Part shown: positions 25,669 through 56,113 of the stretch, piece after piece
Layout of the letters: the number at the start of each line of letters is the position of its first letter
Position numbering within the stretch: position 1 is the stretch's first letter
From: Candidatus Levyibacteriota bacterium
GTDB taxonomy: Bacteria > Patescibacteriota > Microgenomatia > Levybacterales > UBA12049
NCBI GenBank assembly: GCA_963716145.1
Contig: OY970292.1
Location: forward strand, 661,171 to 725,170
Direction: 5' to 3'
DNA: 64,000 nucleotides
Made by a program: the position numbers and the translations under genes
Notes under the pieces: generated by a model
Told to the model about the DNA's origin: nothing
The model's database searches: none
Seen by the model: only the letters and a program-made list of their open reading frames with translations

Positions 25669-25732
25669 CATTGCTATGAATACTACCAATAACCCAATAA
25701 ACAAATACTACCAATCAATTACCAATGAGCAA

Positions 25733-26827
25733 ATGAAAAAGCCATTAAATTATTTTTTATTGATTTGTTTATTTGTAGTATTGGATTATTTGCTTATTTG
25801 CTTATTCTCGCCTATGGCGATTGCTGCTTCTCTACCCTCTTCTACCAACTACAAACTCCAAAACTACACTTTTGGCGCAGGCGGAGTAAAAGATGCCTCA
25901 TCGACCAATTTCAAACTTAATGGCATTGCAGGCGAAGTGGAGTTTGGCAGACCCTCATCGACCAATTTTAAGGCGGGCTCCGGCCTAACCTTCTTGATGA
26001 AATCAAATGTACCGGGTGCTCCTACTTTTACCAATCCATCATCCAATTACGACCGCTTACAATTCATTATCAATACGAGCAACAATCCAACAGATACGAC
26101 TTATGCTCTTCAAATCAGCACTGACAGCTCATTTGCAACCAATATCAATTATGTAAAAAGCGATAATACAATCGGCTCAACACTCATCCTCACTGACTTC
26201 AAAAGCTATACAGCTTGGGGAGGCGGAAGCGGTAACTATGTAACAGGGCTTGTACAAGGCACAACTTACTATTTGAGAGTCAAAGCCAGACAGGGAAACT
26301 ACACTGAAAGCGAGTATGGACCATCCGCTTCAGCAACTACCTCCAATGCATCCTTAACCTTTAGCGTTAATTCATCAACCCTTACTTTCAATAACCTCAA
26401 CGCAGGAAATTCTTTCACAGACAGCAGCAAAAGCACAATCCTGACTACTTCAACTAATGCGTATAATGGCTATGTTGTGAATGCCCGCGAGTCGGCTGTC
26501 CTGACTGCTGCCGGGTTTGGGACAATTGCCAATTATGCAGGCACCAACTCTGCTCCGACTACTTGGTCTGGAACAGGTTTTGGATATACGACAGATGACA
26601 GTAACTTGACAGGTGGAACAGCTGACAGATTTACCAATGGAGGACCGAAATACGCAGGCTTTACGACTTCCTCCCCCGGAGATCCTGTGGCTGATCACCC
26701 GGGGCCTATCCTGACAGCCATATCAAGTGAGGTCTTTAATATCGGTTACCGGGTAACTGTGAGCAATACACAACCCGCAGCCAAATACACAAATACAGTT
26801 TTATATATCGTAGTGCCGAGTTATTAA
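25733..26827 (+). CDS. Secreted surface protein, WxL-domain-like (paralog of 27910-29040)
   Basis: Signal peptide MKKPLNYFLLICLFVVL..AIAA; Thr/Ser/Gly-rich beta-rich body; C-terminus ..GYRVTVSNTQPAAKYTNTVLYIVVPSY parallels ..GWELQVNGVQPPGAYTGTVILIATPTY in the paralog. Confidence 0.45.
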   Translation: MKKPLNYFLLICLFVVLDYLLICLFSPMAIAASLPSSTNYKLQNYTFGAGGVKDASSTNFKLNGIAGEVEFGRPSSTNFKAGSGLTFLMKSNVPGAPTFTNPSSNYDRLQFIINTSNNPTDTTYALQISTDSSFATNINYVKSDNTIGSTLILTDFKSYTAWGGGSGNYVTGLVQGTTYYLRVKARQGNYTESEYGPSASATTSNASLTFSVNSSTLTFNNLNAGNSFTDSSKSTILTTSTNAYNGYVVNARESAVLTAAGFGTIANYAGTNSAPTTWSGTGFGYTTDDSNLTGGTADRFTNGGPKYAGFTTSSPGDPVADHPGPILTAISSEVFNIGYRVTVSNTQPAAKYTNTVLYIVVPSY

Positions 26828-26841
26828 AAATCAAAATAATT

Positions 26842-27813
26842 ATGAGTAGCAAATTTAATATATCAATATACAAATTAATATCTCGATATGTATCACTTAT
26901 GGCTTTTTTATTGGCCTTTCTGTTTTCTGTTTTCTGTTTTCTGTTTAATCCTCCATCAGTTCATGCTTCGCCTCAAGGATTGAGTATAAGTCCTATTATT
27001 ATTAATGTTCCTCTTTCTCCGGGTAAGGTTTATAACTATGAAATAACTATTGAAAATTTAACAGATTCACCTCTTCCGCTTAAGACAAACCTTAATGATT
27101 TTCAGACAACCGGTGAAGAAGGAGGCTATATTTTTGAAGATAGCAAAAGTAATCCTTTACTTTCCTGGATCAAACTAAGCAATACTGATTTTATTTTGGA
27201 GGCTGACCAGAAAAAAACTATTCTTCTAACGATCACTACTCCCAACACTGTCCCACTTGGGGGCTACTATGGAATGCTATTTTTTGAGCCGGTCTTACAA
27301 ACAACCGATGCTAATTCTTCGCGTGTCGCATCAAAAATAGGCGTTTTGCTTCTTGCCAATATCGGCGTTGGTGATAAGAATGCCAAGAAGGCTGAGGTCC
27401 CGACTTTCACAACCGGATTTTTTCATCAAGAAAGTAAAATCCCAATTCTTCTCAGAGTAAAAAATATATCACTGCATTATTTTACAGCCAAGCCGATTTT
27501 GACGGTCTCTCCTCTCTTGAGTTTTTCAAAGGCCGATCAAAAACCAATCTATCTTGAAGAAAAGATTGTTTTTCAGGGCAAAATTAGAAGGTGGGAACAA
27601 ATGATTGACTTACCAGATCTCAAACCAAATATATATAAGGCCCATATGGCAGTCTCTTCCGGAAATGGTGAGCATATAGATGCTGATAGGTATTTTGTTA
27701 TTTTGCCATTTGGAAAACCTATTTTAGTCATTCTTTCTGTAGTTATAGTTCTATTTCTTATTAGGAAAAGAAAAAGATTAAAAAAAGCATTTCGTGCCCT
27801 ACTTACTGCCTAA
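26842..27813 (+). CDS. Cell-surface protein with N-terminal signal peptide and C-terminal TM anchor plus basic tail (DUF916-like)
   Basis: ..ASPQGLSISPIIINVPLSPGKVYNYEITIENLTDSPLPLKTNLNDF.. ; C-terminal ILVILSVVIVLFLIRKRKRLKK; paralog of 29040-29981. Confidence 0.5.
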   Translation: MSSKFNISIYKLISRYVSLMAFLLAFLFSVFCFLFNPPSVHASPQGLSISPIIINVPLSPGKVYNYEITIENLTDSPLPLKTNLNDFQTTGEEGGYIFEDSKSNPLLSWIKLSNTDFILEADQKKTILLTITTPNTVPLGGYYGMLFFEPVLQTTDANSSRVASKIGVLLLANIGVGDKNAKKAEVPTFTTGFFHQESKIPILLRVKNISLHYFTAKPILTVSPLLSFSKADQKPIYLEEKIVFQGKIRRWEQMIDLPDLKPNIYKAHMAVSSGNGEHIDADRYFVILPFGKPILVILSVVIVLFLIRKRKRLKKAFRALLTA

Positions 27814-27909
27814 CTATGTTGCAATTTGCAATATATAGACTTATTCAAGGCTTCAAAACTGTATTTTACGCATTGACATTGCGTAAAGATACAAACTATT
27901 ATTAATATA

Positions 27910-29040
27910 ATGTTAACTCTACAAAAATATCACCCTAAGCACAAAATTGTAGTAGCTCTTCTATTGGCTGTTTTGCTTACTCTTCCACCTCTGGCCAATA
28001 TTTTTATAGGCCGGGCATATGCCGGAGTACTTAGCAGTTACAAGGTTCAGATCAATAATTCACAAGCTGCTGCAAGTGCTGTTACTTACAGCTTCTTCTG
28101 GACAACATCAGCAACAACTTCTATTAAGCAGATTGATATTCAGGTATGTACAACAGCGTCAGGTGCTTGTAGTGCTCCATCTGGTTTCTCATCAGGTACT
28201 CCAACTCTGGCAAGTGATAACATCGCAGGAACAGGTAGGACAACCAGTGCTCCAACTGCAAATGCATTCCGTGTGGTTGTGACAACTCCTGCTTCTCAGG
28301 CAACTCAAGCAATGTTTCTTAACTTCACAGGTATCACCAATCCTTCAGGCATTAATTCAACCTACTATGTAAGATCAACAACTTACTCAGATACTGGTAG
28401 TACAATCATTGATGGAACAACTGTTGCGGCTTTTGCAGTGCTTGATACAACCTCAATTGCTGTTTCAGCAAGTGTTGATCCAACCTTTAGTTTCAGCGTT
28501 GCCGGAGTCTCAACAGGTGGTAACTTTAATGGAGGAACTGGAAATATTAACGTAACCTCAACCGCAACAACTATTCCTTTTGGAACAGTGGTGGTAGGTA
28601 CTCCAAAAATCGCATCGCATGATGTTACTCTATCAACAAATGCCTTGAGTGGATATACCGTCACTGCATCAACCTCCGCAACAATTAGTGGTAACCCGCC
28701 TCTTGTTTCAGGAGCTGTCAACAACATTGATACATTTACAGGGACAAATGCAACACCTACTACCTGGTCTGCTCCGGCAGGTACTGTCGCCAGTGTCAAT
28801 ACCGGCTTTTTCGGTTACTCAACAGAGGACTCTGCATTGTGTACCGGAACTGCTAACCGCTTTACATCAGGTGGTGCCAAATGGGCCGGTCCTACAACCA
28901 CAGGCGCGGAGATTACCTGTAATGCCACAGGAATCAGCACTATCACAACGCGACTTGGCTGGGAACTTCAGGTAAACGGAGTTCAGCCCCCGGGAGCCTA
29001 TACTGGAACAGTTATACTTATAGCAACCCCGACTTACTAA
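27910..29040 (+). CDS. Secreted surface protein, WxL-domain-like (paralog of 25733-26827)
   Basis: Signal peptide; ..TTWSAPAGT.. and C-terminal ..LGWELQVNGVQPPGAYTGTVILIATPTY resembling the second WxL motif and terminal YTGTLTWTL-type ending of Firmicutes WxL proteins. Confidence 0.45.
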   Translation: MLTLQKYHPKHKIVVALLLAVLLTLPPLANIFIGRAYAGVLSSYKVQINNSQAAASAVTYSFFWTTSATTSIKQIDIQVCTTASGACSAPSGFSSGTPTLASDNIAGTGRTTSAPTANAFRVVVTTPASQATQAMFLNFTGITNPSGINSTYYVRSTTYSDTGSTIIDGTTVAAFAVLDTTSIAVSASVDPTFSFSVAGVSTGGNFNGGTGNINVTSTATTIPFGTVVVGTPKIASHDVTLSTNALSGYTVTASTSATISGNPPLVSGAVNNIDTFTGTNATPTTWSAPAGTVASVNTGFFGYSTEDSALCTGTANRFTSGGAKWAGPTTTGAEITCNATGISTITTRLGWELQVNGVQPPGAYTGTVILIATPTY

Positions 29041-29981
29041 TGATGAATCATCCAAATCGAAATAAAAAACCAATAAAAAAGGTTATACTACCCCTTTTTC
29101 TACTCCTGATCGTTGTTGCAGTAGCTTTTAGCTATAAAGAGTTTGTTACAGCTCAAGGTGCCGGACAAGGACTTGAAGTTTCTCCCCCATCTCAGGAAAT
29201 AACTATTGATCCAGGCAAAACTACAACCGTTAAAGCAAAGCTTCGCAATAGAAGCAATAACACTCTTCCTATAAAAGTTCATATTGAAGACTTTACAGCC
29301 AAAGGGGAAGAAGGACAAGTCGAGCTTAACGCAACAAGCCCTTACAGTATTGCTTCCTGGACTACGGTTTCTCCGGAGAGCTTTCAGCTTGCTCCAGGCG
29401 ACGAGCAAGAAGTAACTGCTACGATTAAGGCTCCGCAGGATGCGGCTGGAGGACACTTTGGGTCGTTTGTTTTTGGAGTTGAAGTAGAAAAACCACAAGG
29501 CAGCAATATAGCAGCTTTGTCCCAGGAAATAGCCTCCCTATTCTTGGTCCGTGTAACAGGTCCAGTTAGTGAAAAACTGGATATAAAATCCTTTTCCGCA
29601 CCAAGTTATTCTGAATTTGGACCTATTCCTTTTAAAATAAAGTTTGCAAACAGCGGAAATGTTTATGTTAAGACATTTGGACTTATTAATGTAACAGACA
29701 TGTTTGGAAAAAAGGTTGCGGACATTGTAGTTCCGGGAGTCAACATATTCCCCGATGCAAATAGGATCGTGGAATCTCAACTCAAAAACAGATTCCTTTT
29801 TGGTAAATATACCGCAACCGCCCTTATGTATTATGGTTCCGTTCAAAGCCAAAGTTTGAATGCCACAACCACTTTTATTGTCTTCCCAACTAGAATTGTT
29901 ATTGCTCTAATAGTTATAATTTTCATCCTCTTCATGCTTCGCAAGAGGCTTAAAAAATCACTTAAAGCGTTGATGGGATAA
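29040..29981 (+). CDS. Cell-surface protein, signal peptide plus C-terminal TM anchor/basic tail (DUF916-like; paralog of 26842-27813)
   Basis: ..AQGAGQGLEVSPPSQEITIDPGKTTTVKAKLRNRSNNTLPIKVHIEDF.. ; C-terminal IVIALIVIIFILFMLRKRLKK. Confidence 0.5.
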   Translation: MMNHPNRNKKPIKKVILPLFLLLIVVAVAFSYKEFVTAQGAGQGLEVSPPSQEITIDPGKTTTVKAKLRNRSNNTLPIKVHIEDFTAKGEEGQVELNATSPYSIASWTTVSPESFQLAPGDEQEVTATIKAPQDAAGGHFGSFVFGVEVEKPQGSNIAALSQEIASLFLVRVTGPVSEKLDIKSFSAPSYSEFGPIPFKIKFANSGNVYVKTFGLINVTDMFGKKVADIVVPGVNIFPDANRIVESQLKNRFLFGKYTATALMYYGSVQSQSLNATTTFIVFPTRIVIALIVIIFILFMLRKRLKKSLKALMG

Positions 29982-30397
29982 TGAAAAAGAAAAAATTGCT
30001 GCTCTTTATAACTATATTTATAGTAGGTTTTCTTACTCATGCTTTGTTGTTTCCAAATTTTTTGAGATATACTATTACTGATGTTTCCCAGAAGATTCTA
30101 CCTGACAATAATCAGGCAGAATCAGATAACCCACTTGATCCATTAATTACAAGAATTTACTTTGATGGTAAAAGTTTTTCAAGAAAAAATGTTAATATCG
30201 GATTTACAAGATATATACAAATAATAAACAAAAGCAAGGACTCCTTAATGTCGCTTGAGTCTAATAATCCTGATCTCAGAACTCCCAGAGGATACGGCTT
30301 AGGAGAAGCACTGCAAGCACAGTTTAATAAAAAGGGTGAATTTATAGTTGCTGATAAAAATAATCCTCAAGAAAAACTAATAATCACAGTTAAGTAA
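29981..30397 (+). CDS. Small membrane-anchored protein of the surface-protein locus, hypothetical
   Basis: N-terminal TM LLLFITIFIVGFLTHALLF; 138 aa; start overlaps the upstream stop codon (ATGA). Confidence 0.4.
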   Translation: MKKKKLLLFITIFIVGFLTHALLFPNFLRYTITDVSQKILPDNNQAESDNPLDPLITRIYFDGKSFSRKNVNIGFTRYIQIINKSKDSLMSLESNNPDLRTPRGYGLGEALQAQFNKKGEFIVADKNNPQEKLIITVK

Positions 30398-30457
30398 GGC
30401 TTAACGTTTGCCAAAAAAAACTCCTTCTTGTATAATTCTGGCTACTGCCCCTCATGA

Positions 30458-31072
30458 ATGAAATTTTTATTTGGGGCGAAAATCCCGGCATTAATACTGG
30501 CATTTCTTGCAATTACACAGCTATCTTTTATAAGTGCTTCTTCTGTTTTTGCGGATCAAATACAAAACATGACTGTTTCAGCAGTTGTTCCTCCACGCGT
30601 TTCTGATTTCCAGTTCAGTCTCGATAAGACAGGTGCAAGTAATCCTTCTACAGAAAATGAGCTTTCATATCAAATAACTTATGGTGCATTGGAATCAGCC
30701 GGTATGCCAACAGATACAACTATTGCTGTTTACTTTGGCGATAATATGGATTATGTGGACTATTCAGCAACTGAGGCTTACCGAAGCACCTCACCAATTA
30801 TTGATAAAACTAATAAAACAATTAGCTGGTTAATCCCTTCTTTGCCTAATGGAATGATTAATCAGAAGGTTAAATTCCAGCTCAAACCAAAAACGATCCT
30901 CAATCAGCCAGAAAACTCACTCATTACAGTGAGTGCCAAAATGAATAATCAGTATATAAAGATGCCCGAGCAAACTCTAACAAACCTTTTGGTGATATAT
31001 CTATCAAATTTGAACTATGGTAAGAATAGGAATGAGGTTTTGATATCTGAGCTTTCCCCGCTTTTGAAATAA
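30458..31072 (+). CDS. Secreted protein, hypothetical (last gene of the surface-protein locus)
   Basis: Signal peptide ALILAFLAITQLSFISASSVFA; 204 aa. Confidence 0.4.
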   Translation: MKFLFGAKIPALILAFLAITQLSFISASSVFADQIQNMTVSAVVPPRVSDFQFSLDKTGASNPSTENELSYQITYGALESAGMPTDTTIAVYFGDNMDYVDYSATEAYRSTSPIIDKTNKTISWLIPSLPNGMINQKVKFQLKPKTILNQPENSLITVSAKMNNQYIKMPEQTLTNLLVIYLSNLNYGKNRNEVLISELSPLLK

Positions 31073-31087
31073 TCGCCTACCATTTTG

Positions 31088-31158
31088 TGGACCCGAGGGG
31101 AGTCGAACCCCTGACCCATCCATGCCATGGATGTATGTTACCACTATACCACGGGCCC
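31088..31158 (-). tRNA. tRNA-Ala (anticodon GGC)
   Basis: Minus-strand sequence GGGCCCG-TG-GTAT..; anticodon stem CATCC/GGATG with loop AUGGCAU (anticodon GGC); T-arm AGGGGTTCGACTCCCCT; G3:U70 identity pair present; discriminator A; no encoded CCA. Confidence 0.75.
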
Positions 31159-31278: not shown

Positions 31279-32415
31279 CTACTGGACGTACCCAAGTGGA
31301 TTTACAGCTCCTCCGTTTTGTCTTATTTCAAAATGAACGTGGGGCCCGGTAGTTCTTCCCGTCATACCAATCTGGCCGATAACTGTTCTTCCTCCTGTCA
31401 CTTGCTGCCCAACTGAAACATTAACTCCGCTCATATGAGCATAATGGCTGACAATCCCAGCACCATTGCTTACGTATATATTATTTCCATATCCACCATC
31501 ATATGTACCTAAATGAACTTCTGTTACCGTACCGCTGTGTGCTGCGACAATTGGAGTTCCAACAGGGGATGTTATATCAACTCCGGGATGATAAAAACTG
31601 AAAAATGTGCTTATTCCACCTCTTACAGGATAAGTAAAACCGCCGCTTGCAACAGGAATAGGGCCTTGTGCTATATATACTTGGCGCTTGATAAATGGCT
31701 GTTCAGACGGCTTAATACCCTCAGGCACTATAAGCATTTGTCCTGACACAAGTGTAAATGTTTCAGCATTGGCAAACTCATTAAAAGGCCAATCTACGAT
31801 GTTCTGCGGATTTGTGTCATATTTTTTGGCGATTGAATATACCGTATCCCCTGGCTCAACTTTATGAGCAACACCGGCAACCGGCAATATTTTGAGAGTG
31901 TCCCCTACATTGAGATAGTCCCCCCTCAAGTCATTGGCCCAGCGGATAGTATTCTCGGATAGCTGATTGTCTTTGGTTGAGAACTTCTTCGCAACCGTTG
32001 ATACTGTGTCCCCTTTCTCAACCGTATAATCAATTACCTTGTCTCTTGGCTTTTCCGAAACCTGGGTTTGAAATACTTCCTCGCCATTTAAAACTGACTG
32101 CTTAGCGCTCGTGGTGCTGGAAAGATCCAAGGCAACAGCTCTTTGCGCAAAAATAGGATATGTGTCAGACAAAAAAGGAGCAATTATAACTCCAGCACCC
32201 AAGAAACCTATTGTGGTTAAATGCAAAAAAGGCCGGTTATAACGGCCTCTTTTCATCAGAAAAAGCTTTACAAGCCTATTCTTATTCTTCTCAAAAGTGA
32301 CAGAAAAGGCGATGAGTTTTTTCCTAAGATAATAAAAGAAAAACTCCAAAAAGTCAGACAGTTCTTTGGAGATTATTTTTCGCAGATGCGTAAAAGGAGA
32401 CAACAATTTTTTCAT
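31279..32415 (-). CDS. LysM-domain M23 family metallopeptidase (cell-wall hydrolase)
   Basis: Two LysM-like segments (YTVEKGDTVSTVAKKF.. ; HKVEPGDTVYSIAKKY..) and a C-terminal M23 signature ..HPGVDITSPVGTPIVAAHSGTV..YAHMS..GQIGMTGRTTGPHVHFEIR..; N-terminal TM. Confidence 0.8.
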   Translation of the reverse strand: MKKLLSPFTHLRKIISKELSDFLEFFFYYLRKKLIAFSVTFEKNKNRLVKLFLMKRGRYNRPFLHLTTIGFLGAGVIIAPFLSDTYPIFAQRAVALDLSSTTSAKQSVLNGEEVFQTQVSEKPRDKVIDYTVEKGDTVSTVAKKFSTKDNQLSENTIRWANDLRGDYLNVGDTLKILPVAGVAHKVEPGDTVYSIAKKYDTNPQNIVDWPFNEFANAETFTLVSGQMLIVPEGIKPSEQPFIKRQVYIAQGPIPVASGGFTYPVRGGISTFFSFYHPGVDITSPVGTPIVAAHSGTVTEVHLGTYDGGYGNNIYVSNGAGIVSHYAHMSGVNVSVGQQVTGGRTVIGQIGMTGRTTGPHVHFEIRQNGGAVNPLGYVQ

Positions 32416-32566
32416 GGGTAAGATGTAACTTTAACAAAAAACTGAGGCCGATGTCAAATCCCCAACCTGAAAATTGGTCAGCAAAGTTAATAAAAATTAA
32501 TCCTCAAACAATTCCCAAATCAATTCTAAATTATATGTAGACTATTGACGTTATTACCTGTTAGTA

Positions 32567-32586
32567 TATGTTAGTATACTAACATA
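32567..32586. promoter_or_regulatory. Perfect 20-nt palindrome TATGTTAGTATACTAACATA (with an adjacent TTAGTATA direct repeat) in the rho-peptidase intergenic region; operator-like
   Basis: Exact inverted symmetry read directly; overlaps a TTGACG-N16-TATGTT promoter-like arrangement on the + strand. Confidence 0.35.
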
Positions 32587-32643
32587 TCGAGGCTGGGGAA
32601 TGATAATATATGAAAAATTAATTGGGAGTTCTTGGAAGTATGA

Positions 32644-34257
32644 TTACTCTCCTTTACCTAGGGTTTCGAGGAATTCGTCGTTTGTCTCTACTTTACCAAG
32701 CCGTTCAACCAAAATTGATGTCCGCTCATTGCCATCTAGCATATCCATCATTCTTCGCATTGTGACTATCTTGTTAAGCTTTTCTGAATCCAGAATTTTT
32801 TCTTCTCCTCTTGTTCCTGAACGCTCGATTCCAATTGCCGGGAAAATGCGTTTTTCGGCAAGGGAACGAACCAGATGAAGCTCCATGTTACCAGTTCCCT
32901 TAAACTCTTCATAAATCAGATCATCCATGCGTGATCCTGTCTCAACCAGTGCTGTGCCGATAATAGTCAAACTACCACCCTCTTGCGCGTTTCTGGCTGC
33001 GCCAAAGAATTTCTTCGCAGGCCATAAAGCCGCCGGATCAAAACCTCCTGAAAGAGTTCTACCGCTTGGATCAACAACCAAATTATACGCACGTGCCAGA
33101 CGTGTGATCGAGTCAAGAAGAACTATAACGTCTTTTCCCAGCTCAACCATTCTTTTGGCACGGTCCAATGTGATCTCGGCCACCCGCGTTTGATTTTCAG
33201 GCGGTTCATCAAAATTACTTGCAACGACCTCACCCTTAACAGACATGCTGATATCAGTTACTTCCTCAGGTCTCTCGCCTATGAGCGCTGCCATCAGATG
33301 AGCGTCAGGAAAATTGGCTGAAATCCCTGCTGCAATTTCTTTAAGAATTGTTGTTTTACCTGCTTTTGGAGGAGAAACGATCATGCCTCGCTGGCCAAAC
33401 CCGATTGGTGCGATCAAATCAATCACACGGGTTGAAAGAGGAGTTTTACCTGTTGAAAGAACTATTTGCCTATCAGGATAAATCGCAGTTAAATCATCAA
33501 AGTGCGGACGCTTCATGGACTCATCTGCCGGGATTTCGTTAACCTTCTCAACCTTTAAAAGTCCATAATAACGCTCTGTATCTTTTGGAGGACGGGCTAC
33601 TCCTTCAACTCTATCTCCAGGTCGCAGCATAAATCTTCTGATTTGAGATTGGGAGATGTAGATATCCCGAGCAGATGGAATGAACTTAGGTCTTAGGAAT
33701 CCATGACCTTCAGGCTGAATATCAAGAAAACCAACAACTACTTCTGTCGGACCCGCTTCGCCGAACCCGCCTTGCCGCGAGGCAGGTCGAGGCGAGCCAT
33801 TCTGAACTTCTCTTTGTGGTGTAAAACGGTTAAAACGGCTTTGTCCATCATTTGTGCGGGGACTTGAGGATTGTTGCGATGAATCATCTCCGCCTATATG
33901 TATACGCCTACCTGCAGAACTGCTGTTCTGCTCTTCTGAAGGTTGTTGAGACTCAACTGGCTCTTTTGAGGAAGAAACTTCTTCCTTAAGAACAGCCACC
34001 TCTTCTACCGCTTCGTCTTGGGTCTCTTGGGCTTTTTCCTTCGGCGTAGTTTTAACCTCTTGTGTTTCTTCAGGTCTAGCGGAGCTAGATCCGGCTTCGC
34101 CGGACTCCATCAAAACCACTTCTTTCTTTTTAGTAGCGGGAGTTTTCTTCTTAGCGGGTTTACCAATAAGTTCATCTACTGCAATTTCCTCGGATTTAAC
34201 CTCGGTTTTGTCTGAGGCTTTTGCTACGGTTTTGTCTTGGGTTTTTTTAGTCGCCAT
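32644..34257 (-). CDS. rho: Transcription termination factor Rho (with extended low-complexity N-terminal region)
   Basis: Walker A ..PPKAGKTTILKEIA.., ..IGERPEEVTD.., ..VIVLLDSITRLARAYN.. and a C-terminus typical of Rho; N-terminal Lys/Glu/Ser-rich insertion. Confidence 0.9.
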   Translation of the reverse strand: MATKKTQDKTVAKASDKTEVKSEEIAVDELIGKPAKKKTPATKKKEVVLMESGEAGSSSARPEETQEVKTTPKEKAQETQDEAVEEVAVLKEEVSSSKEPVESQQPSEEQNSSSAGRRIHIGGDDSSQQSSSPRTNDGQSRFNRFTPQREVQNGSPRPASRQGGFGEAGPTEVVVGFLDIQPEGHGFLRPKFIPSARDIYISQSQIRRFMLRPGDRVEGVARPPKDTERYYGLLKVEKVNEIPADESMKRPHFDDLTAIYPDRQIVLSTGKTPLSTRVIDLIAPIGFGQRGMIVSPPKAGKTTILKEIAAGISANFPDAHLMAALIGERPEEVTDISMSVKGEVVASNFDEPPENQTRVAEITLDRAKRMVELGKDVIVLLDSITRLARAYNLVVDPSGRTLSGGFDPAALWPAKKFFGAARNAQEGGSLTIIGTALVETGSRMDDLIYEEFKGTGNMELHLVRSLAEKRIFPAIGIERSGTRGEEKILDSEKLNKIVTMRRMMDMLDGNERTSILVERLGKVETNDEFLETLGKGE

Positions 34258-34496
34258 AAAATATATGAATTAAATTAATTAAGGAATTCTTTGTTGTTGG
34301 CATTTAAGATAAGTTTTCGATATTATTTTACAGTAGAATTTTGAAACGCGAATCTACGGGATTGGTTACAGAAGATAATCACTTGTAACCAGACGTATTA
34401 CACCATATATTCGCCGCTTTGTCAACAATCAAAACTGTTTCAACACTCTTACATTGGCGTAGTTTTGCGTACGATTTTGCGTAGTTCTGCGATTTA

Positions 34497-34895
34497 CTAG
34501 TCAAGGAGTGTAGGGAGAGAAAATTTGGTAATAGATTCTCCCAGAAATACATACGTCACAGCATTTAAAATTATAAATGCGGAAAGCGATATCACAAGGC
34601 CGATGATAGCGGCACGTATATGAGCCCTCGCTGCGTCGATCTTGGCCTTATCTCCACCCGAAGAAATATACCTAATTCCCCCATACACAAGATAAATGAG
34701 GGTCAGAGATATAGCCAATATAATTAGAACGGAGACAATATTGCCAACCACTCCCCCTGCCTTGTCTGCTTTTAGCGCGCAGAGACTGGAAAATTCCGTT
34801 CCCGTAGGACACAGGTCTGCATAAGCTATCCGTGTTTGGAATAATAAAACTAAAAAAGTACTTAATGATAAAAATGAGCGGTATAGTTTTTTCAT
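34497..34895 (-). CDS. Small secreted two-TM protein, TrbC/VirB2-type conjugative pilin-like
   Basis: Signal peptide followed by two hydrophobic helices separated by a short polar loop (..VSVLIILAISLTLIYLVYGGIRYISSGGDKAK..AAIIGLVISLSAFIILNAV..); 132 aa; architecture of T4SS pilins. Confidence 0.4.
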   Translation of the reverse strand: MKKLYRSFLSLSTFLVLLFQTRIAYADLCPTGTEFSSLCALKADKAGGVVGNIVSVLIILAISLTLIYLVYGGIRYISSGGDKAKIDAARAHIRAAIIGLVISLSAFIILNAVTYVFLGESITKFSLPTLLD

Positions 34896-35045
34896 TGTCT
34901 ATATCTATAGTAGCCTTATAAAAAACCACTTGTCAAGGAGTCCAACTAACTTTATGACGAAGACCCGCCGATAATCGCAGCATGAACCGCGCTACGAATA
35001 GTAGGTAAGACGAATGCTAAGATATGGCTGGGTCAATGTCCCTCT

Positions 35046-35075
35046 TGACAAGGTCCTATAATGTATGCTATAGTT
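35046..35075 (+). promoter_or_regulatory. Putative promoter TTGACA-N18-TATAGT upstream of the ATAAC element and the 35190 gene
   Basis: Hexamers read directly. Confidence 0.3.
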
Positions 35076-35080
35076 CTCCA

Positions 35081-35179
35081 ACTGATAACTAATAACAGAT
35101 AACAAGTTATGACGACTGATAACTCATAACAAATAACAATAACGAAATGTTATCAGTTATAAGTAATCAGTTATAAGTT
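35081..35179. promoter_or_regulatory. ATAAC/GTTAT heptad-array element (two tandem units) immediately upstream of the 35190 start codon
   Basis: actgataactaataacagataac...ctgataactcataacaaataacaataac...gttatcagttataagtaatcagttataagtt; homologous to 12930-12994 and 39071-39132. Confidence 0.5.
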
Positions 35180-35189
35180 TAACCAACCT

Positions 35190-36062
35190 ATGAATAAATC
35201 AATACTTAAAGTCTCAGTAACAGCTCTTACTCTTCTTGCTCTTTCAGCAGGAGTCTCTTTTGCAGCTTCTACTAACTATGGTACAAATCAATGCCAGCCT
35301 ATCTATGGTGGTGGAGAATCATGTGTTAAGACTCCTCAGTTTGAGATCAATAAAACTGTAAAGAATCCTCAAAGCGGTGCTTTTGTTGATAACCTTGGAG
35401 TATCTGACGCAAAGTACAGAAGTGGTGAAACAGTTATCTTTAAGATCACTGTCAGAAATACAACAGGTGATACCCTTAAAAATGTTGTAGTTAAAGATAT
35501 CCTGCCTGATTTTGTAGACTTTGTTGAAGGTATGGGTGGAACATTTGATCAGAATTCAAAAACCTTAACAATCAAGATTGACTCCCTGGCAAAGGATGAA
35601 TCACGCGACTTTTTCGTTAAAGTTAAAGTAAGAGGAAATGATAAGCTCCCAAGTGACCAGAACATAGTCTGTGTTGTTAACCAATCTATTATTACAGTAG
35701 ACAACAAAACAGGACAAGATAATGCATCAGTTTGTATTGAGAAAGGTGTTCCAACACCTACTCCTACAAACCCTGGTAACCCTAACAATCCGGATCAGCC
35801 AAGCAATCCTAGCAACCCTAGCAACCCAACACAGCCTGGTAATCCAAGCAATCCAACAAATCCTGGTAATCCAACTACAACTAAAGGTGGATTCCCAACC
35901 AATCCCGCTACAGTTAACCCACCAACAACTAAAGGAGGATTGCCTGTCTATCCACCAACCAAAGCAACAAAAACACCTGATACAGGACCAGAAAGCTTAG
36001 CTTTGTTTGGACTGATACCTAGTGCAATTGGGGGAATGTTCCTCAGACGGAAGAGTAAATAA
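35190..36062 (+). CDS. Secreted surface protein with Pro-rich wall-spanning linker and C-terminal sorting-signal-like tripartite motif
   Basis: Signal peptide; PTPTPTNPGNPNNPDQPSNPSNPSNPTQPGNPSNPTNPGNP linker; C-terminal ..KTPDTGPESLALFGLIPSAIGGMFLRRKSK (polar motif, hydrophobic segment, basic tail) as in sortase or archaeosortase substrates, but the motif is not canonical LPXTG. Confidence 0.5.
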   Translation: MNKSILKVSVTALTLLALSAGVSFAASTNYGTNQCQPIYGGGESCVKTPQFEINKTVKNPQSGAFVDNLGVSDAKYRSGETVIFKITVRNTTGDTLKNVVVKDILPDFVDFVEGMGGTFDQNSKTLTIKIDSLAKDESRDFFVKVKVRGNDKLPSDQNIVCVVNQSIITVDNKTGQDNASVCIEKGVPTPTPTNPGNPNNPDQPSNPSNPSNPTQPGNPSNPTNPGNPTTTKGGFPTNPATVNPPTTKGGLPVYPPTKATKTPDTGPESLALFGLIPSAIGGMFLRRKSK

Positions 36063-36174
36063 GCTCCGAATTCTCAATTCTCAATTTACAATTTTCATTG
36101 AATGCTTCAATGTTTAAATTTTCAAAATCGTGTCATTGTAATTTGATTGAAAACTGAAAATTAAAAATTGAAAA
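36063..36174. repeat. AT-rich palindromic terminator-like element (gaaaattgaaaa family) between convergent stops
   Basis: caattttcattgaat...tttgattgaaaactgaaaattaaaaattgaaaatta; same subfamily as 12010-12124. Confidence 0.55.
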
Positions 36175-38484
36175 TTAGCCTTCCACCTTCTTCATATACC
36201 TAGTCCGTGAATTCTGTATCACCTTTTCCCTGTTCTGGGTTACTGACTGAGGCAATGGAAGCGTATATGCAAGGAAAGGAGCCTGGGTGATACTATCAAT
36301 CGCCAGCTTCACAATAGCCTGATAATTTCCAAGTGCGAGCAAATCTTCCTCTTTGAATCTCTCGGTAAATTCCCTTGCCATATAGCCTGCATCCTCAGCC
36401 CCCACCAAAAATGAAGCCATTGTGCCCGCGTTTCCGAAGATCGCGCCTCTGACCTCCTGCGGAATTTGGGAAATATATTGGTTGGCCAGAATCAGGTTCA
36501 AACGGTATTTACGGGCTTCCGACAGAATTTTGATAAAACTGGTAGTTGCGAAATTCTGGAACTCATCAACATATAGATAAAAATCCCGCCGGTCTTTTTC
36601 GGCCAAAGAAACCCTATTCATGGCAGCAAGTTGGATTTTGGTGATAAACATCGCGCCCAAGAGGGCTGAGTTGTCCTCCCCTAGCCTCCCCTGCGAAAGG
36701 TTTAATAAAAGAATCTTCCCTTCATTCATGATTTTTTCGATATCGATTGTGGATTTGGGATTTTGGATAATGTTTCTGATAAAACGGCTAGATATAAACT
36801 GCCCTACTTTATTTAGAATTGGTGAGATCGACTCAGCTCTGAGCTTGTCGGTCATATTGGCAAACTCATTTTCCCAAAAGCTTTTCAAAATCGCGTCATC
36901 TATGTGAGTCATCGCGTTTTTGCGAAAAGCTTCATTCGTCAGCATTTCAGGCACCATCAGAAGTGTTGGATTGGGCAGCCTGACAACAGTCATAAGTGTA
37001 TTACGCAAAATATACTCAAGTCTAGGTCCCCATGACTCTCCATATATCTTATGGAAAGTGGCCACAATTCCCGATACAACAAGTTCCATTTGATATGAAT
37101 CTGTCACCTCAATCGGGTTGAGAGAGAACGCATGGGTCAAATCCGATGGGTCAAGATAGATCACATCGTTAATCCTATAGGACGGTATGTAGTCCAAAAT
37201 CGTCTCACATAAATCTCCGTGCGGATCTATGATACACATCCCCTTGCGGTTACGAATATCGCTTATCGCGAGATTGGCAATAAGGGTGGACTTACCTGTT
37301 CCTGTTTTTCCGATTATGTACATATGGCGTCTTCTGTCTGATGCTTTGATCCCAAAGGTTGTCATTCTGTTCTTGAACTCAGTCCTGGCAAAAAAATTGA
37401 TTTCCGATTTCTCATCAGTTGATAAGCCTTCACTGATCGGAAGCTTTTCAGGAGGCTCGGAAAGTATAGTCTTGTGCCAAGAAATGTTGTGGATTTTGGC
37501 AAGCTTGTCGGTTGGGAAATGAAACATTGTGGCTATTTCCTGAATGTTGAAGATCTGTCTAGGCATGAAAAAACGTGACCTTTTAAGCATGGCCTTGATC
37601 AGCCTCTCCCTCTGCCAGAGAAAAACACGCCTGAAAATGAGGCTGTTGCCGGTCGGGTTGTTGTATGAAGAAAAGCTGTTGGCTATTTGGCGTATCAGAT
37701 GCTCTGAGCGTTCTGGTGTTTCTGAGTTGACGGCGATTCTTATGGCTGTTTTAAAGCCATTTGCCGCTATCTTTTCCATAATCACCTTGGAATATGGGTT
37801 GGCGTGCTCAACGCCTGCCGCATCGGCTCGCTTGCCAGCCGCACGCTCTCCCTTTGCCTGCCAGCCGTTATCAATCGGTCTGAGTAAAAATTGTATACTA
37901 ATTTTATCGGTTGGCTGGGACTTAGAAAGCAGACCCAGAACTGAGGCTAGGGAGTCAACATCCTTAAATTCGGTGAAAGTACGGATCGGATAAAGCGGAT
38001 CCGCGGTAAGTTTCATCTGTCCGACATAGAGCGTGTTCTTCGATGCTGGATCTTGGGTCTTGGTTCTTGGAATACCGCTCTCCGAAGATCCATGATCTAA
38101 GACCCTTGATCTGGCAAGGTTCTCCGAAGAACTAAAATCTAAGACCTTTAATCCAAGCACTTCCGGCAGATAATCCTTCACCTTGGTGATCAGAGCCTTG
38201 GGATAAACAGCCACGATTTGCCCTTCTATAAAGGTCTGGTACTTGCTGGGAACTGAGACGAAAAAATGAATAGCCTGATCAATCACGCCCAACTCAAGGC
38301 TGATAGGAACTCCCAAGCCCCAAAAGGGCAAAATCAGCCTCTTCAGGCTGGCAATTGAGGCCAGGAACTGCACCATGGACTCAGGCGTCTCCTCGCCTGT
38401 CCGGGAAGTCCGGACATCCAAAAGGACACGGTCCGAGACTAAATCCCCAGATTTAGATTTCTTATTTAACAATTTATTGACCAT
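36175..38484 (-). CDS. P-loop ATPase of the TrwB/TraD/VirD4-VirB4 (type IV secretion, AAA_10/DUF87-like) superfamily
   Basis: ..MYIIGKTGTGKSTLIANLAISDIRNRKGMCIIDPHGDL.. closely parallels TrwB-type GATGTGKS...IVDPNGD. Walker B ..FYLYVDEFQNF.. and ..ARKYRLNLILANQ.. are also present. No N-terminal TM helices are seen, which is unusual for a T4SS coupling protein. Confidence 0.55.
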   Translation of the reverse strand: MVNKLLNKKSKSGDLVSDRVLLDVRTSRTGEETPESMVQFLASIASLKRLILPFWGLGVPISLELGVIDQAIHFFVSVPSKYQTFIEGQIVAVYPKALITKVKDYLPEVLGLKVLDFSSSENLARSRVLDHGSSESGIPRTKTQDPASKNTLYVGQMKLTADPLYPIRTFTEFKDVDSLASVLGLLSKSQPTDKISIQFLLRPIDNGWQAKGERAAGKRADAAGVEHANPYSKVIMEKIAANGFKTAIRIAVNSETPERSEHLIRQIANSFSSYNNPTGNSLIFRRVFLWQRERLIKAMLKRSRFFMPRQIFNIQEIATMFHFPTDKLAKIHNISWHKTILSEPPEKLPISEGLSTDEKSEINFFARTEFKNRMTTFGIKASDRRRHMYIIGKTGTGKSTLIANLAISDIRNRKGMCIIDPHGDLCETILDYIPSYRINDVIYLDPSDLTHAFSLNPIEVTDSYQMELVVSGIVATFHKIYGESWGPRLEYILRNTLMTVVRLPNPTLLMVPEMLTNEAFRKNAMTHIDDAILKSFWENEFANMTDKLRAESISPILNKVGQFISSRFIRNIIQNPKSTIDIEKIMNEGKILLLNLSQGRLGEDNSALLGAMFITKIQLAAMNRVSLAEKDRRDFYLYVDEFQNFATTSFIKILSEARKYRLNLILANQYISQIPQEVRGAIFGNAGTMASFLVGAEDAGYMAREFTERFKEEDLLALGNYQAIVKLAIDSITQAPFLAYTLPLPQSVTQNREKVIQNSRTRYMKKVEG

Positions 38485-38884
38485 ATTTATATATTATCAT
38501 TGTTCTTTGTCTGCACAAAGAACCAAAAACTAAGCGGTATCCCGCCCGTTCGCTGCGTAATGCATGAAAAATCTTATGAGCGCATCAGGGGGATTCCTCG
38601 GCAGAGCAAAGCTATGATCGAGGAGGGGGTGAAATCACCCGATAAGTGAAGAAGATTTCGAAAGCATGGAGCGAGACTAGGGCGCAGTTTTGCTGCCAAA
38701 AGTGTGAAAAAAGAGTTTGTCTCCGCAAAAGAACAGAGAAAAAATTATTAAAAAAATTTTGCATTTTGACTTTTAAGTTTTGAATTGAAGCTCGAATTTT
38801 GCGTTGTATACAAATATAGTACCAGAGTCGGGAATTTTCTCCAAGTGATTAAATTATTTATACGCTATAGGCTGAAATTGCCAC

Positions 38885-38913
38885 TTGACAAATGTAATAA
38901 AATTTGATACTAT
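38885..38913 (+). promoter_or_regulatory. Strong sigma70-like promoter TTGACA-N17-TACTAT with extended -10 TG, reading into non-coding sequence
   Basis: ttgaca aatgtaataaaatttga tactat read directly; no ORF follows for >300 nt. Confidence 0.4.
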
Positions 38914-39070
38914 AAGTCGCTTTCTTTTTAAAAGCCCGTTTTGTGCCCGTAAGCCAAAACCAGCTCAAAAAGTCAGCACGTATCTGTAAGGTATAGTTCG
39001 GATTTTACTGAACTCTGCTTTGCAGAGGCACTTTAACAAGGCACACAAGAATTTAGTCGCAGACGCTCAG

Positions 39071-39132
39071 ACTGATAACTAATGACAAATAACAGATAAC
39101 TGTTATGAGTTATAAGTAATAAGTTATGAGTT
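39071..39132. promoter_or_regulatory. Third copy of the ATAAC/GTTAT heptad-array element, at the left edge of the high-GC island
   Basis: actgataactaatgacaaataacagataactgttatgagttataagtaataagttatgagtt. Confidence 0.45.
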
Positions 39133-39254
39133 CCGCGGCTATCTTAGCTTAGAAGAAATAAACAAAACATCTTCTTTTTAGTTGGTCGGAATTTTGCAAA
39201 CAAGGGTAAATCTTTGTTTTCAGAACTCCGATCAACGGAAGGAGGTGAAGCACA

Positions 39255-39404
39255 TTGGCCAACGGAGTCTTTCCGGCCAATCACCAACCAGGAAAACGGC
39301 GGAAGAGCAAGAAGCGCAAGAAGCGCGAATTGAAGGGAACCAATAAGGGCCAGAAAAAGGTCTACGTGGTCGAATCCGGAAAGGTAATTAGCTTCAAGCC
39401 TTAA
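39255..39404 (+). CDS. Small highly basic protein (49 aa, TTG start) with strong Shine-Dalgarno
   Basis: ggaaggaggtg 6 nt upstream of TTG; translation (M)ANGVFPANHQPGKRRKSKKRKKRELKGTNKGQKKVYVVESGKVISFKP; not in the ORF track because it is under 60 aa and has a non-ATG start. Confidence 0.3.
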   Translation: MANGVFPANHQPGKRRKSKKRKKRELKGTNKGQKKVYVVESGKVISFKP

Positions 39405-39533
39405 CGGCGGAAACGATTTTTGCATGAGGCAATACAAACAGGCGCCCCGAACAATCAGCAGGAGCTGAGCGTCTGAGCCTACAGGGCAAAATGGGAATAT
39501 GCGTAAACCAACGAGAAACGAGGACACACAGTC

Positions 39534-40607
39534 ATGGCAACACTCGAAGAAGTACGGCAGTGGACCAACAATCAGGCTCGCAGTCTGCAGGAACTGCAGG
39601 ACGCGGTTGCCGGATTCAGGAACCTCGGCTTCACCATTCCCGCCGGCGCGCAGACCATCGACGGACAGCGCGACAGCCTGTACCGTTTCATCATGGCGCA
39701 GCCCAACCTGCACGCAGCCTCGCCCTGGACGCCGCCCGGAATGAACCCCGGACTGCCCCAGACGCAGACCACGCAGCAGCAGGGTTCGCCGGCTCCGGCT
39801 CCCGTGGACGACCACGACGAGCCCCGCAGGAAGTTCAACCCTTGGGCCATCGCCGGAATCGCGGCGGGAGTCATTGCGTTGCTCTTCGGGGCCTACCTGC
39901 TCGGAAACCGTGACACCAAGGTGGTGACCGGTGTACCGGCAGCAGCCCCCGCCCCGGCACCCGCGGCTCAGCAGCCGATCGTTGTCGTCGCTCCTCCCTC
40001 GGGGGGTGCGCCGGCCGGCGCTTCGGCGGCTACGGCAGCAGGCTCGCCCCAGGTCCAGTCCGTGGTTTCGGCTTCCGGCACCCCCGCTTCGGCGGCGGTC
40101 GTGACGGCTCCGTCGGCTTCCTGGGGCCGTGCGACGTCAAGTCGCTGGGTGGCAACTGGGTCCCCGCGGAAGCCAACATGTGGAAGTACGCCGGTCCGGC
40201 GAGCACCATCACGGTGCCCGCTTCGGGTCCGACGTGGGTCATCGACCACGCGCTCGGCTCGATCACCAACGGCATGTCCGTGACCACGGGTGTGGCCACG
40301 GCCTACTGCCTCGGTGGCGGTACGGCCACGGCGGCTCTCGGCCTCCGGCACCATCGCGGCCACGACCACGGCCACGGCGGCTCCGGCCTCGGCTTGCCCC
40401 GGCACCTCGGACCAGGCGGCCAGCCTGCTCGGCGGCAACGCCAGCAGCTGGACGACCCTCCCCGGCAACGGGTGGCACTACAGCGGTACGAGCACCACGG
40501 TGAAGCACCCCGGCTTCGGGCGTGTCGACTACGACGGTGGGAACCTTTCCACCGCCGGGACGACGAGCCCCGCCGGGATCCAGTTCACCTTCTGGTGCAA
40601 CGCCTAG
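39534..40607 (+). pseudogene. High-GC membrane/secreted Ala-Pro-rich protein gene, apparently disrupted by two compensating frameshifts (frames 0 -> 2 -> 0)
   Basis: ORFs 39534-40283, 40178-40627 and 40290-40607 form one continuous sensible reading only if frames are switched near ~40120 and ~40290. TM segment WAIAGIAAGVIALLFGAYLL. Confidence 0.45.
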
Positions 40608-40722
40608 CTCCGCAGTTCCAACCATGAGGTGTGTGACGGTGGATCCGTACAAGAGTTGCGCCCCCCTGGGCCAACTGTGCGGTGAAGCCGTCACGCTCTC
40701 ACAAACGAGGAAAGAAGGAAAG

Positions 40723-41259
40723 ATGCAGAGAAGGACAGTCCTAACCACAGTCATGCTCGCCCTCGCGATCTTCGCGGGAGCTTGCGGTGACTCCGATGAC
40801 AAGTCCACGACGGACAACACTGTGCCCAGTGCCGTCGTCCAACCCGTCCCGACCATCGTGCAGCAGGCACCGACGAGCCCCGCGCCCACCGGCGCCACCA
40901 GCTCGGCCTGCATCAGCACCACGGAGGTTAACTCGCTCACTCAGAGCGACCTCCACCGTGTGGGGGGTGAGGCTTGCGCCTACACCCTTCGGGTCGCCGC
41001 TGTGGGCAACACGCCCGTCGTCTGCGCTTCCGTTCTGATCTGCACCCTGTCCTTCCAGGATGGGATTCGGGTCTACATCGGCGATGGCACGCAGTACACG
41101 GGCGTCCTGGCAGGAACGGTGCGATTCGTCGCTGCCTATCCCGCTTGGGACACCCCGCACAACGCGTGCGCGCAGACCGCGGCAGAGGACCTGTTCGGTC
41201 AGCAGCAAGTTCCACCCTTCCACGTCGTGGCAGGGAACTTCAGCTGCACTCGCGCCTGA
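40723..41259 (+). CDS. High-GC lipoprotein (lipobox LAIFAGAC-G), actinobacterial type
   Basis: MQRRTVLTTVMLALAIFAGACGDSDDK.. with SD aggaaagaaggaaag upstream; flanked by ~42-nt direct repeats. Confidence 0.5.
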   Translation: MQRRTVLTTVMLALAIFAGACGDSDDKSTTDNTVPSAVVQPVPTIVQQAPTSPAPTGATSSACISTTEVNSLTQSDLHRVGGEACAYTLRVAAVGNTPVVCASVLICTLSFQDGIRVYIGDGTQYTGVLAGTVRFVAAYPAWDTPHNACAQTAAEDLFGQQQVPPFHVVAGNFSCTRA

Positions 41260-41549
41260 CCTGAGAACCAGGAGAGTGACGGTGATCCGTACAAGAGTTG
41301 CGCCAGGTGGCCAACTAGTACGGTGATCCGTCGCTCTCCCCTCAGGATTCTTCTGAGCAAAATGACACAAGTCGTCAGACTTGGAAATTCTCGTCGAATG
41401 CGATGGGAAAAGAAGAGGCTGACACGAGTGTCATGGAGATGTGAGAGCATCAAGGGTACGGTTAGTACAGAAGATTTGCAGCATGCGCTGCGCTTATATT
41501 TTCTGGCTTTGCCTTCCCTTGGAGTTTTCCATTTTCCCACTTGTGTGCC

Positions 41550-41618
41550 TGTTTTCGTTTACCGGTCAAACCGGTACTGATGAGTCCTTCGGCTAACGCT
41601 CAGGACGAAACGAAAGTA
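41550..41618 (+). ncRNA. Candidate type III hammerhead ribozyme
   Basis: 5'-UGUUUUC-GUU|-[stem I hairpin UACCGG ucaaa CCGGUA]-CUGAUGA-[stem II G UCC uucggcuaacgcuca GGA C]-GAAA-C-GAAAGUA-3'. Both conserved core strands (CUGAUGA and GAAA) are present, three stems close correctly, and a GUH cleavage triplet (GUU) sits before stem I. Confidence 0.55.
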
Positions 41619-41694
41619 CTTGAAATTAAAGAGAATATGTTATAGGATACAAGGTAATTAATTAAACTTAGTACTTATAATAATTAAATAAAAT

Positions 41695-42478
41695 ATGAAA
41701 ACAATATCATTTATCATACCTGTATATAACGAGGAAAAAAGACTGTATAAAACTCAGGAGGCTCTGATGAAGCTGAAGCTTCCCCGTGGTCTTAAGCTTG
41801 ATGAAATCATCTTTGTGGATGATGGCTCAAAAGATAAGACTGTAAAAAGTATCCGCTACTTTATTCATGTTATGAAAAAGTACAAAATCCAAAAAGGTGC
41901 CAACTATAGAGTTATTAAATATTCTCAAAACCAGGGCAAAGGTTACGCAATAAGACGCGGTATGCTTGCGGCCCGCTCTGACTACGCTCTCTTTTTTGAT
42001 GCCGATATGTCAACTCCTCTTAAAGAGCTTAATCATTTCATGGAGTATATTAAGCAGGATGTTGATGTGGTGATCGGGTACCAGAAAACACAAAGACTCC
42101 AAGGTTATAAGAAGCCAATCAGTGTTTCGTGCCAAATTGGGTCAGGGATTTACGCTAATGACAGGAACATTGCTTGGAATGGATTTGACTGATTACACCT
42201 GCGGATTTAAAGCCTTCTCAAAAAACGCCAGGATTGCTATATTTGCCAATTGTCAAATCAACAGATGGGCATTTGATGCTGAGATACTTTATCTTGCGCA
42301 CAGATATAAAATGTCTATCGCGGAAGTACCTGTTGTCTGGAGAAATGACGAATACACCAAAGTTAAATTGCACAAAGATGTGCTCTTAACACTTCTTGAC
42401 CTTTCAAGAATAATCGGCTTGCACATAATTGCTCCCGCTCTTTCCTTTCCCAAAAGGCAGGTTGCCCTATCCGCCTAG
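41695..42478 (+). pseudogene. Family 2 glycosyltransferase (dolichyl-phosphate mannose synthase-like), split by a frameshift near 42120-42190
   Basis: ORF 41695-42192 carries ..IIPVYNEE..VDDGSKDKT..GKGYAIRRGM..FFDADMS..; ORF 42122-42478 in another frame continues with ..DYTCGFKAF..FDAEILYLA..; together they make a typical GT2. Could be an assembly indel. Confidence 0.6.
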
Positions 42479-55881: not shown

Positions 55882-56113
55882 CTAAACTGAACTTATCTGC
55901 CCGCAAAGAAACCTTCTTAAAGGAGGTTTTTTTGTAGCGTATTTTTCCACCAAAAAACCGCCCTTGCTGGCGGTTTTATTGGATTCTTTTTTTGCCCAAA
56001 AGCTTTCACGAAGGACATGTCCTGTACAAAAAGCTGAAGATTTGAAAAAAGAAAATTCCTGGCGATGACTTATTGTCCCATAAATAAATACAGTATCGTA
56101 GGCGCTGGCATGT

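Follow-up and report, generated by a model that had tools for sequence, protein, structure and literature searches.

The DNA analysed here, called the window throughout, is a 64-kb stretch of a Candidatus Levyibacteriota contig, and the coordinates and strands we give are window positions. In a 7.2-kb part of it a first-pass annotation had seen a local module resembling a type IV secretion system (T4SS), made up of a pilin, a surface protein, an ATPase and a peptidoglycan hydrolase. The four open reading frames (ORFs) so named are all where it had placed them, and the stretch holds five genes (Table 1), for a LysM-M23 peptidase, the transcription termination factor Rho, a VirB2-like pilin, a DUF11-repeat surface protein and an ATPase that resembles type IV coupling proteins (T4CPs). 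The rho gene, which had gone unmentioned, lies between the hydrolase and the pilin, and the DUF11 gene separates the pilin from the ATPase on the strand opposite to both. Promoter-like sites, which are consensus matches only, were found separately upstream of the M23 gene (32457-32428), the pilin gene and the DUF11 gene (35045-35074, the strongest of the scanned stretch). Because rho and the opposite-strand gene interrupt the set and these sites are separate, the genes do not form one operon. The stretch is an ordinary piece of the chromosome of a Patescibacterium of Microgenomates type, with the genes among housekeeping neighbours, rho itself being a housekeeping gene that belongs to no secretion system. 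The pilin and the ATPase are separate genes of already described kinds, since a published survey reports both (Quinonero-Coronel et al. 2025, PMC12102498), and not a self-contained secretion machine.

Table 1. Positions of the features in the window, with two example genes from other loci (prefixed by locus)
Feature	Position	Strand	Remarks
Orphan T4CP-like ATPase, 769 aa	36175..38484	-	DUF8128 N-terminal domain fused to TrwB/VirD4-type NTPase with all-alpha insertion; no transmembrane anchor
ATPase N-terminal domain, aa 1-355, DUF8128	37420..38484	-	Predicted VirB4-N-terminal-like fold (domain model and Foldseek)
ATPase C-terminal P-loop translocase domain, aa 356-769	36175..37419	-	Walker A 392-400, Walker B 636-643, helical insertion ~aa 463-573
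VirB2-like pilin, T4SS_pilin family, 132 aa	34497..34895	-	PF18895; signal peptide, two hydrophobic helices
DUF11-repeat cell-surface protein, 290 aa	35190..36062	+	Pfam DUF11 53.5 bits; Pro/Asn-rich stalk, C-terminal TPxTG signal
Transcription termination factor Rho	32644..34257	-	NCBIfam PRK09376 542.7 bits (cut-off 315); Pfam Rho_RNA_bind and ATP-synt_ab
LysM-M23 peptidase, membrane-anchored peptidoglycan endopeptidase	31279..32415	-	Pfam Peptidase_M23 91 bits, LysM 70 bits
tRNA-Ala gene	31087-31158
5S rRNA	56057-56169
tRNA-Ala(TGC)	59786-59860
Sigma70_r4/HARE-HTH gene, examples	L038:8700-9749, L076:8665-9732

Family, domains and distribution of the ATPase

The ATPase carries the motifs GKTGTGKST (aa 392-400), IIDPHGDL, DEFQNF (aa 640-645) and ARKYRL (aa 657-662), just as first read, and their residues are invariant in an alignment of 43 homologues. 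Equally invariant there, GKTGTGKS (aa 392-399) and VDEFQ (aa 639-643) are the Walker A and Walker B of a P-loop domain of the FtsK/HerA superfamily. Above the Pfam cut-offs are TrwB_AAD_bind (PF10412, 38 bits against 20.5) and DUF87 (PF01935, 36.8 against 23.2), TraG-D_C stays narrowly under its cut-off, and the precomputed annotation of the protein lists DUF8128 as PF26449. The first-pass annotation had proposed hidden Markov model (HMM) searches as a check; of the models that it named, TrwB_AAD_bind was passed but AAA_10 was not (18.5 bits against 27.5), and the VirB4 family model TIGR00929 was also missed (17.7 against 643.1). The NCBIfam equivalogs for T4CP (42 bits against 250), VirB4 and HerA (12-14 bits against cut-offs of at least 800) were all missed by far. 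TrwB (1e9r) was the only significant sequence match in the PDB (phmmer E 3.5e-8, aa 374-678). A full-length AlphaFold model built from the 43 sequences (mean predicted local distance difference test, pLDDT, 86) matched TrwB in Foldseek with a target-normalised template modelling (TM) score of 0.62-0.67 and a root-mean-square deviation of 4-5 Å. Cag-beta and HerA were also among its matches, and the best E-values went to VirB4/TrwK (E 5e-16). The ATPase thus is of the VirD4/VirB4 kind, as had been claimed, on the strength of TrwB_AAD_bind and the TM score of about 0.65 to TrwB. It sits in the VirB4/VirD4 branch of the FtsK/HerA translocases, and its C-terminal half is TrwB-like with an all-alpha insertion.

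With TrwB of plasmid R388, VirD4 and Cag-beta the ATPase shares the P-loop domain with its all-alpha insertion, Walker A and B and the DEFQ and ARK motifs, whereas it lacks their two-helix membrane domain, has an extra N-terminal domain of 355 aa and has no relaxase or T4SS neighbours. With VirB4 (TrwK of R388) it shares the two-domain layout and a similar length, yet it fails the VirB4 HMM cut-offs and no VirB3, VirB6 or VirB8 gene lies nearby. The absence of N-terminal transmembrane helices, remarked on earlier, was upheld by hydropathy and AlphaFold, because for the sole Kyte-Doolittle segment (aa 50-68) the models show beta strands or short helices inside the globular N-terminal domain.

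The N-terminal 355 aa were also modelled alone (pLDDT 85, predicted TM score 0.81). In a Foldseek search of the PDB with this model, TrwK/VirB4 chains made up 13 of the 15 top matches (E 1e-6 to 2e-4, probability 1.0, TM 0.38-0.46). As no TrwB or HerA chains were among the matches, the modelled domain resembles the N-terminal domain of VirB4. Against BFVD the matches were gp156 of Bacillus phage G (E 4e-18), the VirB4-like gp155 of the same phage (E 3e-6) and proteins of phages JL and Slash. A sequence-profile link between DUF8128 and VirB4 was found neither by hmmsearch of the PDB with a profile of 40 N-terminal domain sequences nor in Pfam scans of all 40 members, and hhalign against TrwK alone (R388 sequence NC_028464) and against an 11-sequence MPF_T VirB4 alignment gave nothing significant for the domain, only the ATPase part being matched (E 7.8e-5). 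Since these profile tests were negative, the VirB4-N-terminal-like fold that we newly propose for DUF8128 is a likeness of modelled structure at TM scores below 0.5. An exhaustive phmmer search with the domain returned 907 representative clusters; in the matches listed it is N-terminal in proteins of the length of either a fused gene or the first ORF of a split one, and many shorter ones look like fragments.

More than 7,000 homologues of the ATPase are detectable, and identity to it is 62% or more, over 97-100% of the length, in the best 120. NCBI names them 'type IV secretion system DNA-binding domain-containing protein'. The ATPase is the already described orphan T4CP homologue carried by nearly all Patescibacteria: a survey of 3,035 of their genomes counted 5,713 VirD4-type T4CP homologues in 2,918 genomes, 148 of them near virB4, and found VirB4 in 2,417 (Quinonero-Coronel et al. 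2025, PMC12102498). The window ATPase shares with these orphans PF26449, PF10412 and PF01935, the chromosomal location far from virB4 and the nearly universal presence in the candidate phyla radiation (CPR), and shows no essential difference from them, being a member of the Microgenomates sub-type, which is fused and has no N-terminal membrane helix. Our scan of genome contigs gave more than 578 relatives, and 80 loci across CPR phyla were studied. The C-terminal domain is 47-66% identical between CPR phyla, and it therefore behaves like the product of a core gene. Its neighbours in the 80 loci include secDF, mnmA, tRNA synthetase genes (alaS, pheT), frr, tsf/rpsB and pgk; the recurrent ones are housekeeping genes, and no T4SS or relaxase gene emerged among them.

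A fused gene stands in 44 of 75 loci and two genes in 31. The two-gene version has an ORF of ~390-550 aa with a membrane helix and DUF8128, followed by a separate ATPase, and fused homologues of the Woykebacteria/CPR3 type have a single N-terminal membrane helix in 112 of 120 cases, whereas the window type has none. That other lineages have a membrane-anchored or two-gene version of the ATPase is new here, as are the gene upstream of most two-gene versions and the phage relatives described below. Directly upstream of the split pair, in 26 loci that are all of the split type, lies a gene of ~350-430 aa with Sigma70_r4 and HARE-HTH (helix-turn-helix) domains (two examples are in Table 1), on the same strand and 0-400 nt away in 23 of the 26; several of these loci have secDF upstream and mnmA downstream. 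Together with the split pair it looks like a conserved three-gene operon. The window has no such gene. As a separate observation, both halves of the split homologues (loci L030-L080, e.g. L036:9851-12808) are in the same frame in 22 of 31 loci against about 10 expected by chance, a count that may be inflated as related loci are not independent, with spacers of 3-186 nt in multiples of three. Programmed read-through of an in-frame stop was considered for them and rejected, because many spacers hold 2-5 stop codons.

Outside the CPR the closest relatives of the ATPase are in large Bacillus phages (phrog_5156 HMM E 2.6e-77; phage G gp156 by tblastn E 1e-30). The members of phrog_5156, namely phage G gp156, SPO1 gp27.4 and 0305phi8-36 ORF201, share the fold of the N-terminal domain (TM 0.59), though they are phage-borne and 20-24% identical to the ATPase. 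In phage G (L094, 86543-98114) gp156 comes directly after the VirB4-like gp155 (P-loop_TraG, AAA_10), and a TrbL/VirB6-like gp153 (TrbL_4) is two genes further upstream. In SPO1 (L093, 86981-100555) gp27.4 has a Replic_Relax protein as its neighbour, and an actin-like segregation protein is encoded a few genes upstream. In these phages the surrounding genes make up an uncharacterised module, T4SS-like or plasmid-like.

The pilin, the surface protein and the hydrolase

The pilin combines a signal peptide and a Cys pair with two hydrophobic helices that flank a YGGIRYISSGGDKAK loop, and aligns with R388 TrwL, which has the same topology of signal peptide and two-helix hairpin. With our local Pfam copy it scored 25.2 bits against PF18895 (T4SS_pilin), for which the cut-off is 26.6. 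PF18895.6 is listed for exactly this protein and is carried by 36 of its 39 homologues, and in the alignment of 36 CPR pilins and TrwL the family was matched by 36 of the 37 sequences (best E 3.7e-14). The 132-aa protein is therefore a T4SS_pilin/VirB2-like pilin, in agreement with the pilin-type protein with signal peptide and two transmembrane helices recognised in the first reading. Neither a HerA/FtsK-type classification of the ATPase nor a pilin without a profile match, which that reading had put forward as counting against it, was found. The gene is single-copy, the only pilin gene in the window, and stands outside any array or T4SS cluster; in this it differs from the pilin arrays of Saccharibacteria and Microgenomatia (Wang et al. 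2023), which have the same Pfam family and topology. VirB2-like pilins (PF04956, PF18895) are reported in 1,948 assemblies, near virB4 in only 1,135 of them, with arrays especially common in Microgenomatia (PMC12102498).

Around the 80 ATPase loci we looked for pilins with BLAST and with a pilin HMM built for the purpose. Only 5 of them have one within 10 kb of the ATPase (L001, L009, L010, L013 and L020), the last four having arrays of 5-7 pilins at 6-9 kb from the ATPase on the other strand. The order ATPase-DUF11-pilin-rho is repeated in L001 only (1 of 80 loci). In L004, where the ATPase is 68% identical, the order ATPase-DUF11-rho-M23 is kept with only 210 nt at the position of the pilin, and in L002 and L003 not one of these neighbours is present.

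The surface protein between the pilin and the ATPase ends, as had been noticed, in TPDTG (aa 262-266), 19 hydrophobic residues and RRKSK. In the L001 and L004 orthologues the corresponding residues read TPSTG and TPETG, which makes the motif a conserved TPxTG form of LPXTG. Judged from its sequence, the DUF11 protein would be a sortase-type anchored surface protein; no LPXTG cell-wall-anchor model was among its NCBIfam matches. A sortase to go with the motif had been suggested as a further check, and no plausible one was found in the window, where a relaxed [TS][LIV]x[TS]C pattern is matched by a few ORFs that do not look like sortases. In the M23 peptidase two LysM domains and an M23 domain with intact HxxxD and HxH metal-binding motifs are present, and its best NCBIfam matches, all under the cut-offs, are wall enzymes of the DipM, MepM and ActS type. 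The VirB1-like role suggested for it did not hold up: no lytic transglycosylase or CHAP domain next to virB4, by which a VirB1 would be recognised, was found, the protein having LysM and M23 domains only, and rho lies between it and the pilin. It is not of VirB1 type and looks like an ordinary wall hydrolase. Synteny is most likely all that links the M23 peptidase, rho and the DUF11 protein to the pilin and the ATPase.

Possible roles of the ATPase and the pilin

Three points speak for a minimal T4SS-like or pilus machine built locally from the pilin, the surface protein, the ATPase and the hydrolase: the genes lie within 7.2 kb, the order of four genes recurs in L001, and M23/LysM domains occur on some patescibacterial VirB1 homologues. 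Yet rho and the strand switches break up the set, and Pfam scans of the large ORFs across the 64-kb window gave no VirB3, VirB4, VirB6, VirB8, VirB11 or relaxase family. The VirB6-like and VirB8-like partners that the first-pass annotation had suggested looking for are thus missing from the window, and with them any channel component and VirB4, the one universal T4SS protein. Also, L004 keeps the rest of the gene order where it has no pilin, and the adjacency is found in 1 of 80 loci. Such a machine is already largely refuted by how the genes are ordered in relatives, and we consider it improbable.

On balance we lean towards the ATPase and the pilin being dispersed parts of a chromosomal, conjugation-derived patescibacterial T4SS whose core genes (virB4, trsD, virB3, virB6) would lie at other places in the genome. 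That T4SS would polymerise the pilin, and the ATPase would serve it as a second, coupling-type motor, presumably a hexameric ring whose ATP hydrolysis drives the movement or recruitment of a polymer substrate. In VirB4 the N-terminal domain docks the motor onto membrane partners, and the VirB4-like domain of the ATPase may act in the same way; as the fused Microgenomates form would have lost its anchor, it must reach the membrane via partners. This assignment to a dispersed T4SS is supported by the phage relatives, because gp156 of phage G adjoins a VirB4-like gene with a TrbL/VirB6-like gene nearby, and gp27.4 of SPO1 adjoins Replic_Relax. Several points weigh against it. The functional tie between the ATPase and the patescibacterial T4SS is a presumed one, and virB4 elsewhere in this genome is an assumption, as the search covered the window. 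The likeness of the N-terminal domain to VirB4 comes from predicted structure, with low TM scores and negative HMM and hhalign results. The t4cp homologue of S. epibionticum is reported to be not essential while the T4SS genes are, and more genomes have T4CP-like genes (2,918) than have virB4 (2,417) (PMC12102498). In the essential T4SS cluster, moreover, no recognisable coupling protein was seen (Wang et al. 2023).

The same observations leave room for a possible, though less probable, explanation, namely that the ATPase was taken over for a T4SS-independent housekeeping job, such as the handling of chromosomal or incoming DNA with a DNA-binding partner, and that the pilin is unrelated to it. 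The ATPase is in 96% of genomes and VirB4 in 80%, a gap of which incompleteness of metagenome-assembled genomes could explain a part. Its neighbours are housekeeping genes, and its C-terminal domain keeps the identity between phyla given above, whereas plasmid coupling proteins would be expected to diverge much more. The Sigma70_r4/HARE-HTH gene immediately upstream of the split pair in 26 loci would provide such a partner, but the window form is without one. Where the T4SS is essential the homologue is reported not to be, and according to the authors of the survey exaptation "cannot be ruled out" (PMC12102498). Against a housekeeping job, no known housekeeping ATPase has this architecture, and the nearest non-CPR relatives are in VirB6/VirB4-like or Replic_Relax contexts. 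In a more speculative version, which we hold rather doubtful, the DUF8128 ATPase would be a third motor of the VirB4/VirD4 family across the CPR that has kept a VirB4-type docking domain and works outside the conjugation-derived T4SS, possibly as a DNA translocase acting with the Sigma70_r4/HARE-HTH protein on host-derived or chromosomal DNA, and that shares its origin with the Bacillus phage module.

That the ATPase is a helicase of HerA type, serving repair or anti-phage defence, is very unlikely. PADLOC mad8 scores 56.7 bits and HerA models reach up to 34 bits, DUF87 is over its Pfam cut-off and HerA is among the Foldseek matches. Yet next to the ATPase there is no nuclease, Sir2 or other effector, either in the window or at the 80 loci; its near-universal presence and vertical conservation are not those of a defence gene; away from the P-loop both sequence and fold are nearer to TrwB than to HerA; and the NCBIfam HerA models are missed by far, as given above. 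A defence or phage origin of the window gene was likewise set aside, as PADLOC and PHROG matches exist but context and conservation argue against it.

A large part of bacterial diversity belongs to the Patescibacteria, which depend on host cells; theirs is the first T4SS that has been reported as essential for growth, and no coupling ATPase has yet been tied to it. The window adds no new system. What it offers for the near-universal orphan ATPase is a set of testable leads, namely the VirB4-like N-terminal domain suggested by modelling, the loss of the anchor with fusion in Microgenomates, the HTH partner upstream of most two-gene versions and the phage relatives.

Other features of the window

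Directly upstream of the ATPase lies a high-GC segment of ~1.8 kb (39500-41300, with flanks 38485-41700) with 60-75% GC in a genome of ~40% GC. Its ATPase-proximal edge and the adjacent flank are 100% identical over 1,301 nt in an independent Logan assembly (L081). Between homologous flanks, L001 carries another high-GC insert, of ~2.2 kb, that is not homologous to this one. The site may be a hot spot for foreign DNA. Its ORFs encode a 249-aa Ala/Pro-rich membrane protein and a 178-aa lipoprotein-like protein, and the island gave no Pfam or PHROG match, no tblastn match in plasmids and no named cluster members. A 36-nt direct repeat, of which the last 21 nt are perfect, is at 40627-40662 and 41270-41304. 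Beside the island a family-2 glycosyltransferase (41695-42478, + strand) appears to be split between two overlapping ORFs (165 aa and 118 aa), which could reflect a frameshift or a pseudogene, and a 1173-aa polytopic protein downstream lies among glycosyltransferases.

On the other side of the 7.2-kb stretch, six co-directional genes (25616-31072, + strand) encode secreted or anchored proteins. Two of these proteins end in TPTY or VPSY, and two have a signal peptide and a C-terminal membrane helix, one of them with a weak WxLIP_PGBD match; the cluster looks like a surface-protein locus of the WxL/WxLIP type. Far from the T4SS-like genes, three large proteins (1807-3876, 9325-12009 and 17001-19646) have Peptidase_G2 (intramolecular-chaperone autocleavage) domains, and among their genes are an integrase-like gene (7383-9416), a multi-HTH transposase-like gene (3990-5756) and PIN genes, which suggests a variable or mobile region. 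The 23S rRNA gene (56227-59503, - strand) spans 3,277 nt as against the 2,925 positions of the Rfam model and thus holds insertions of ~350 nt.

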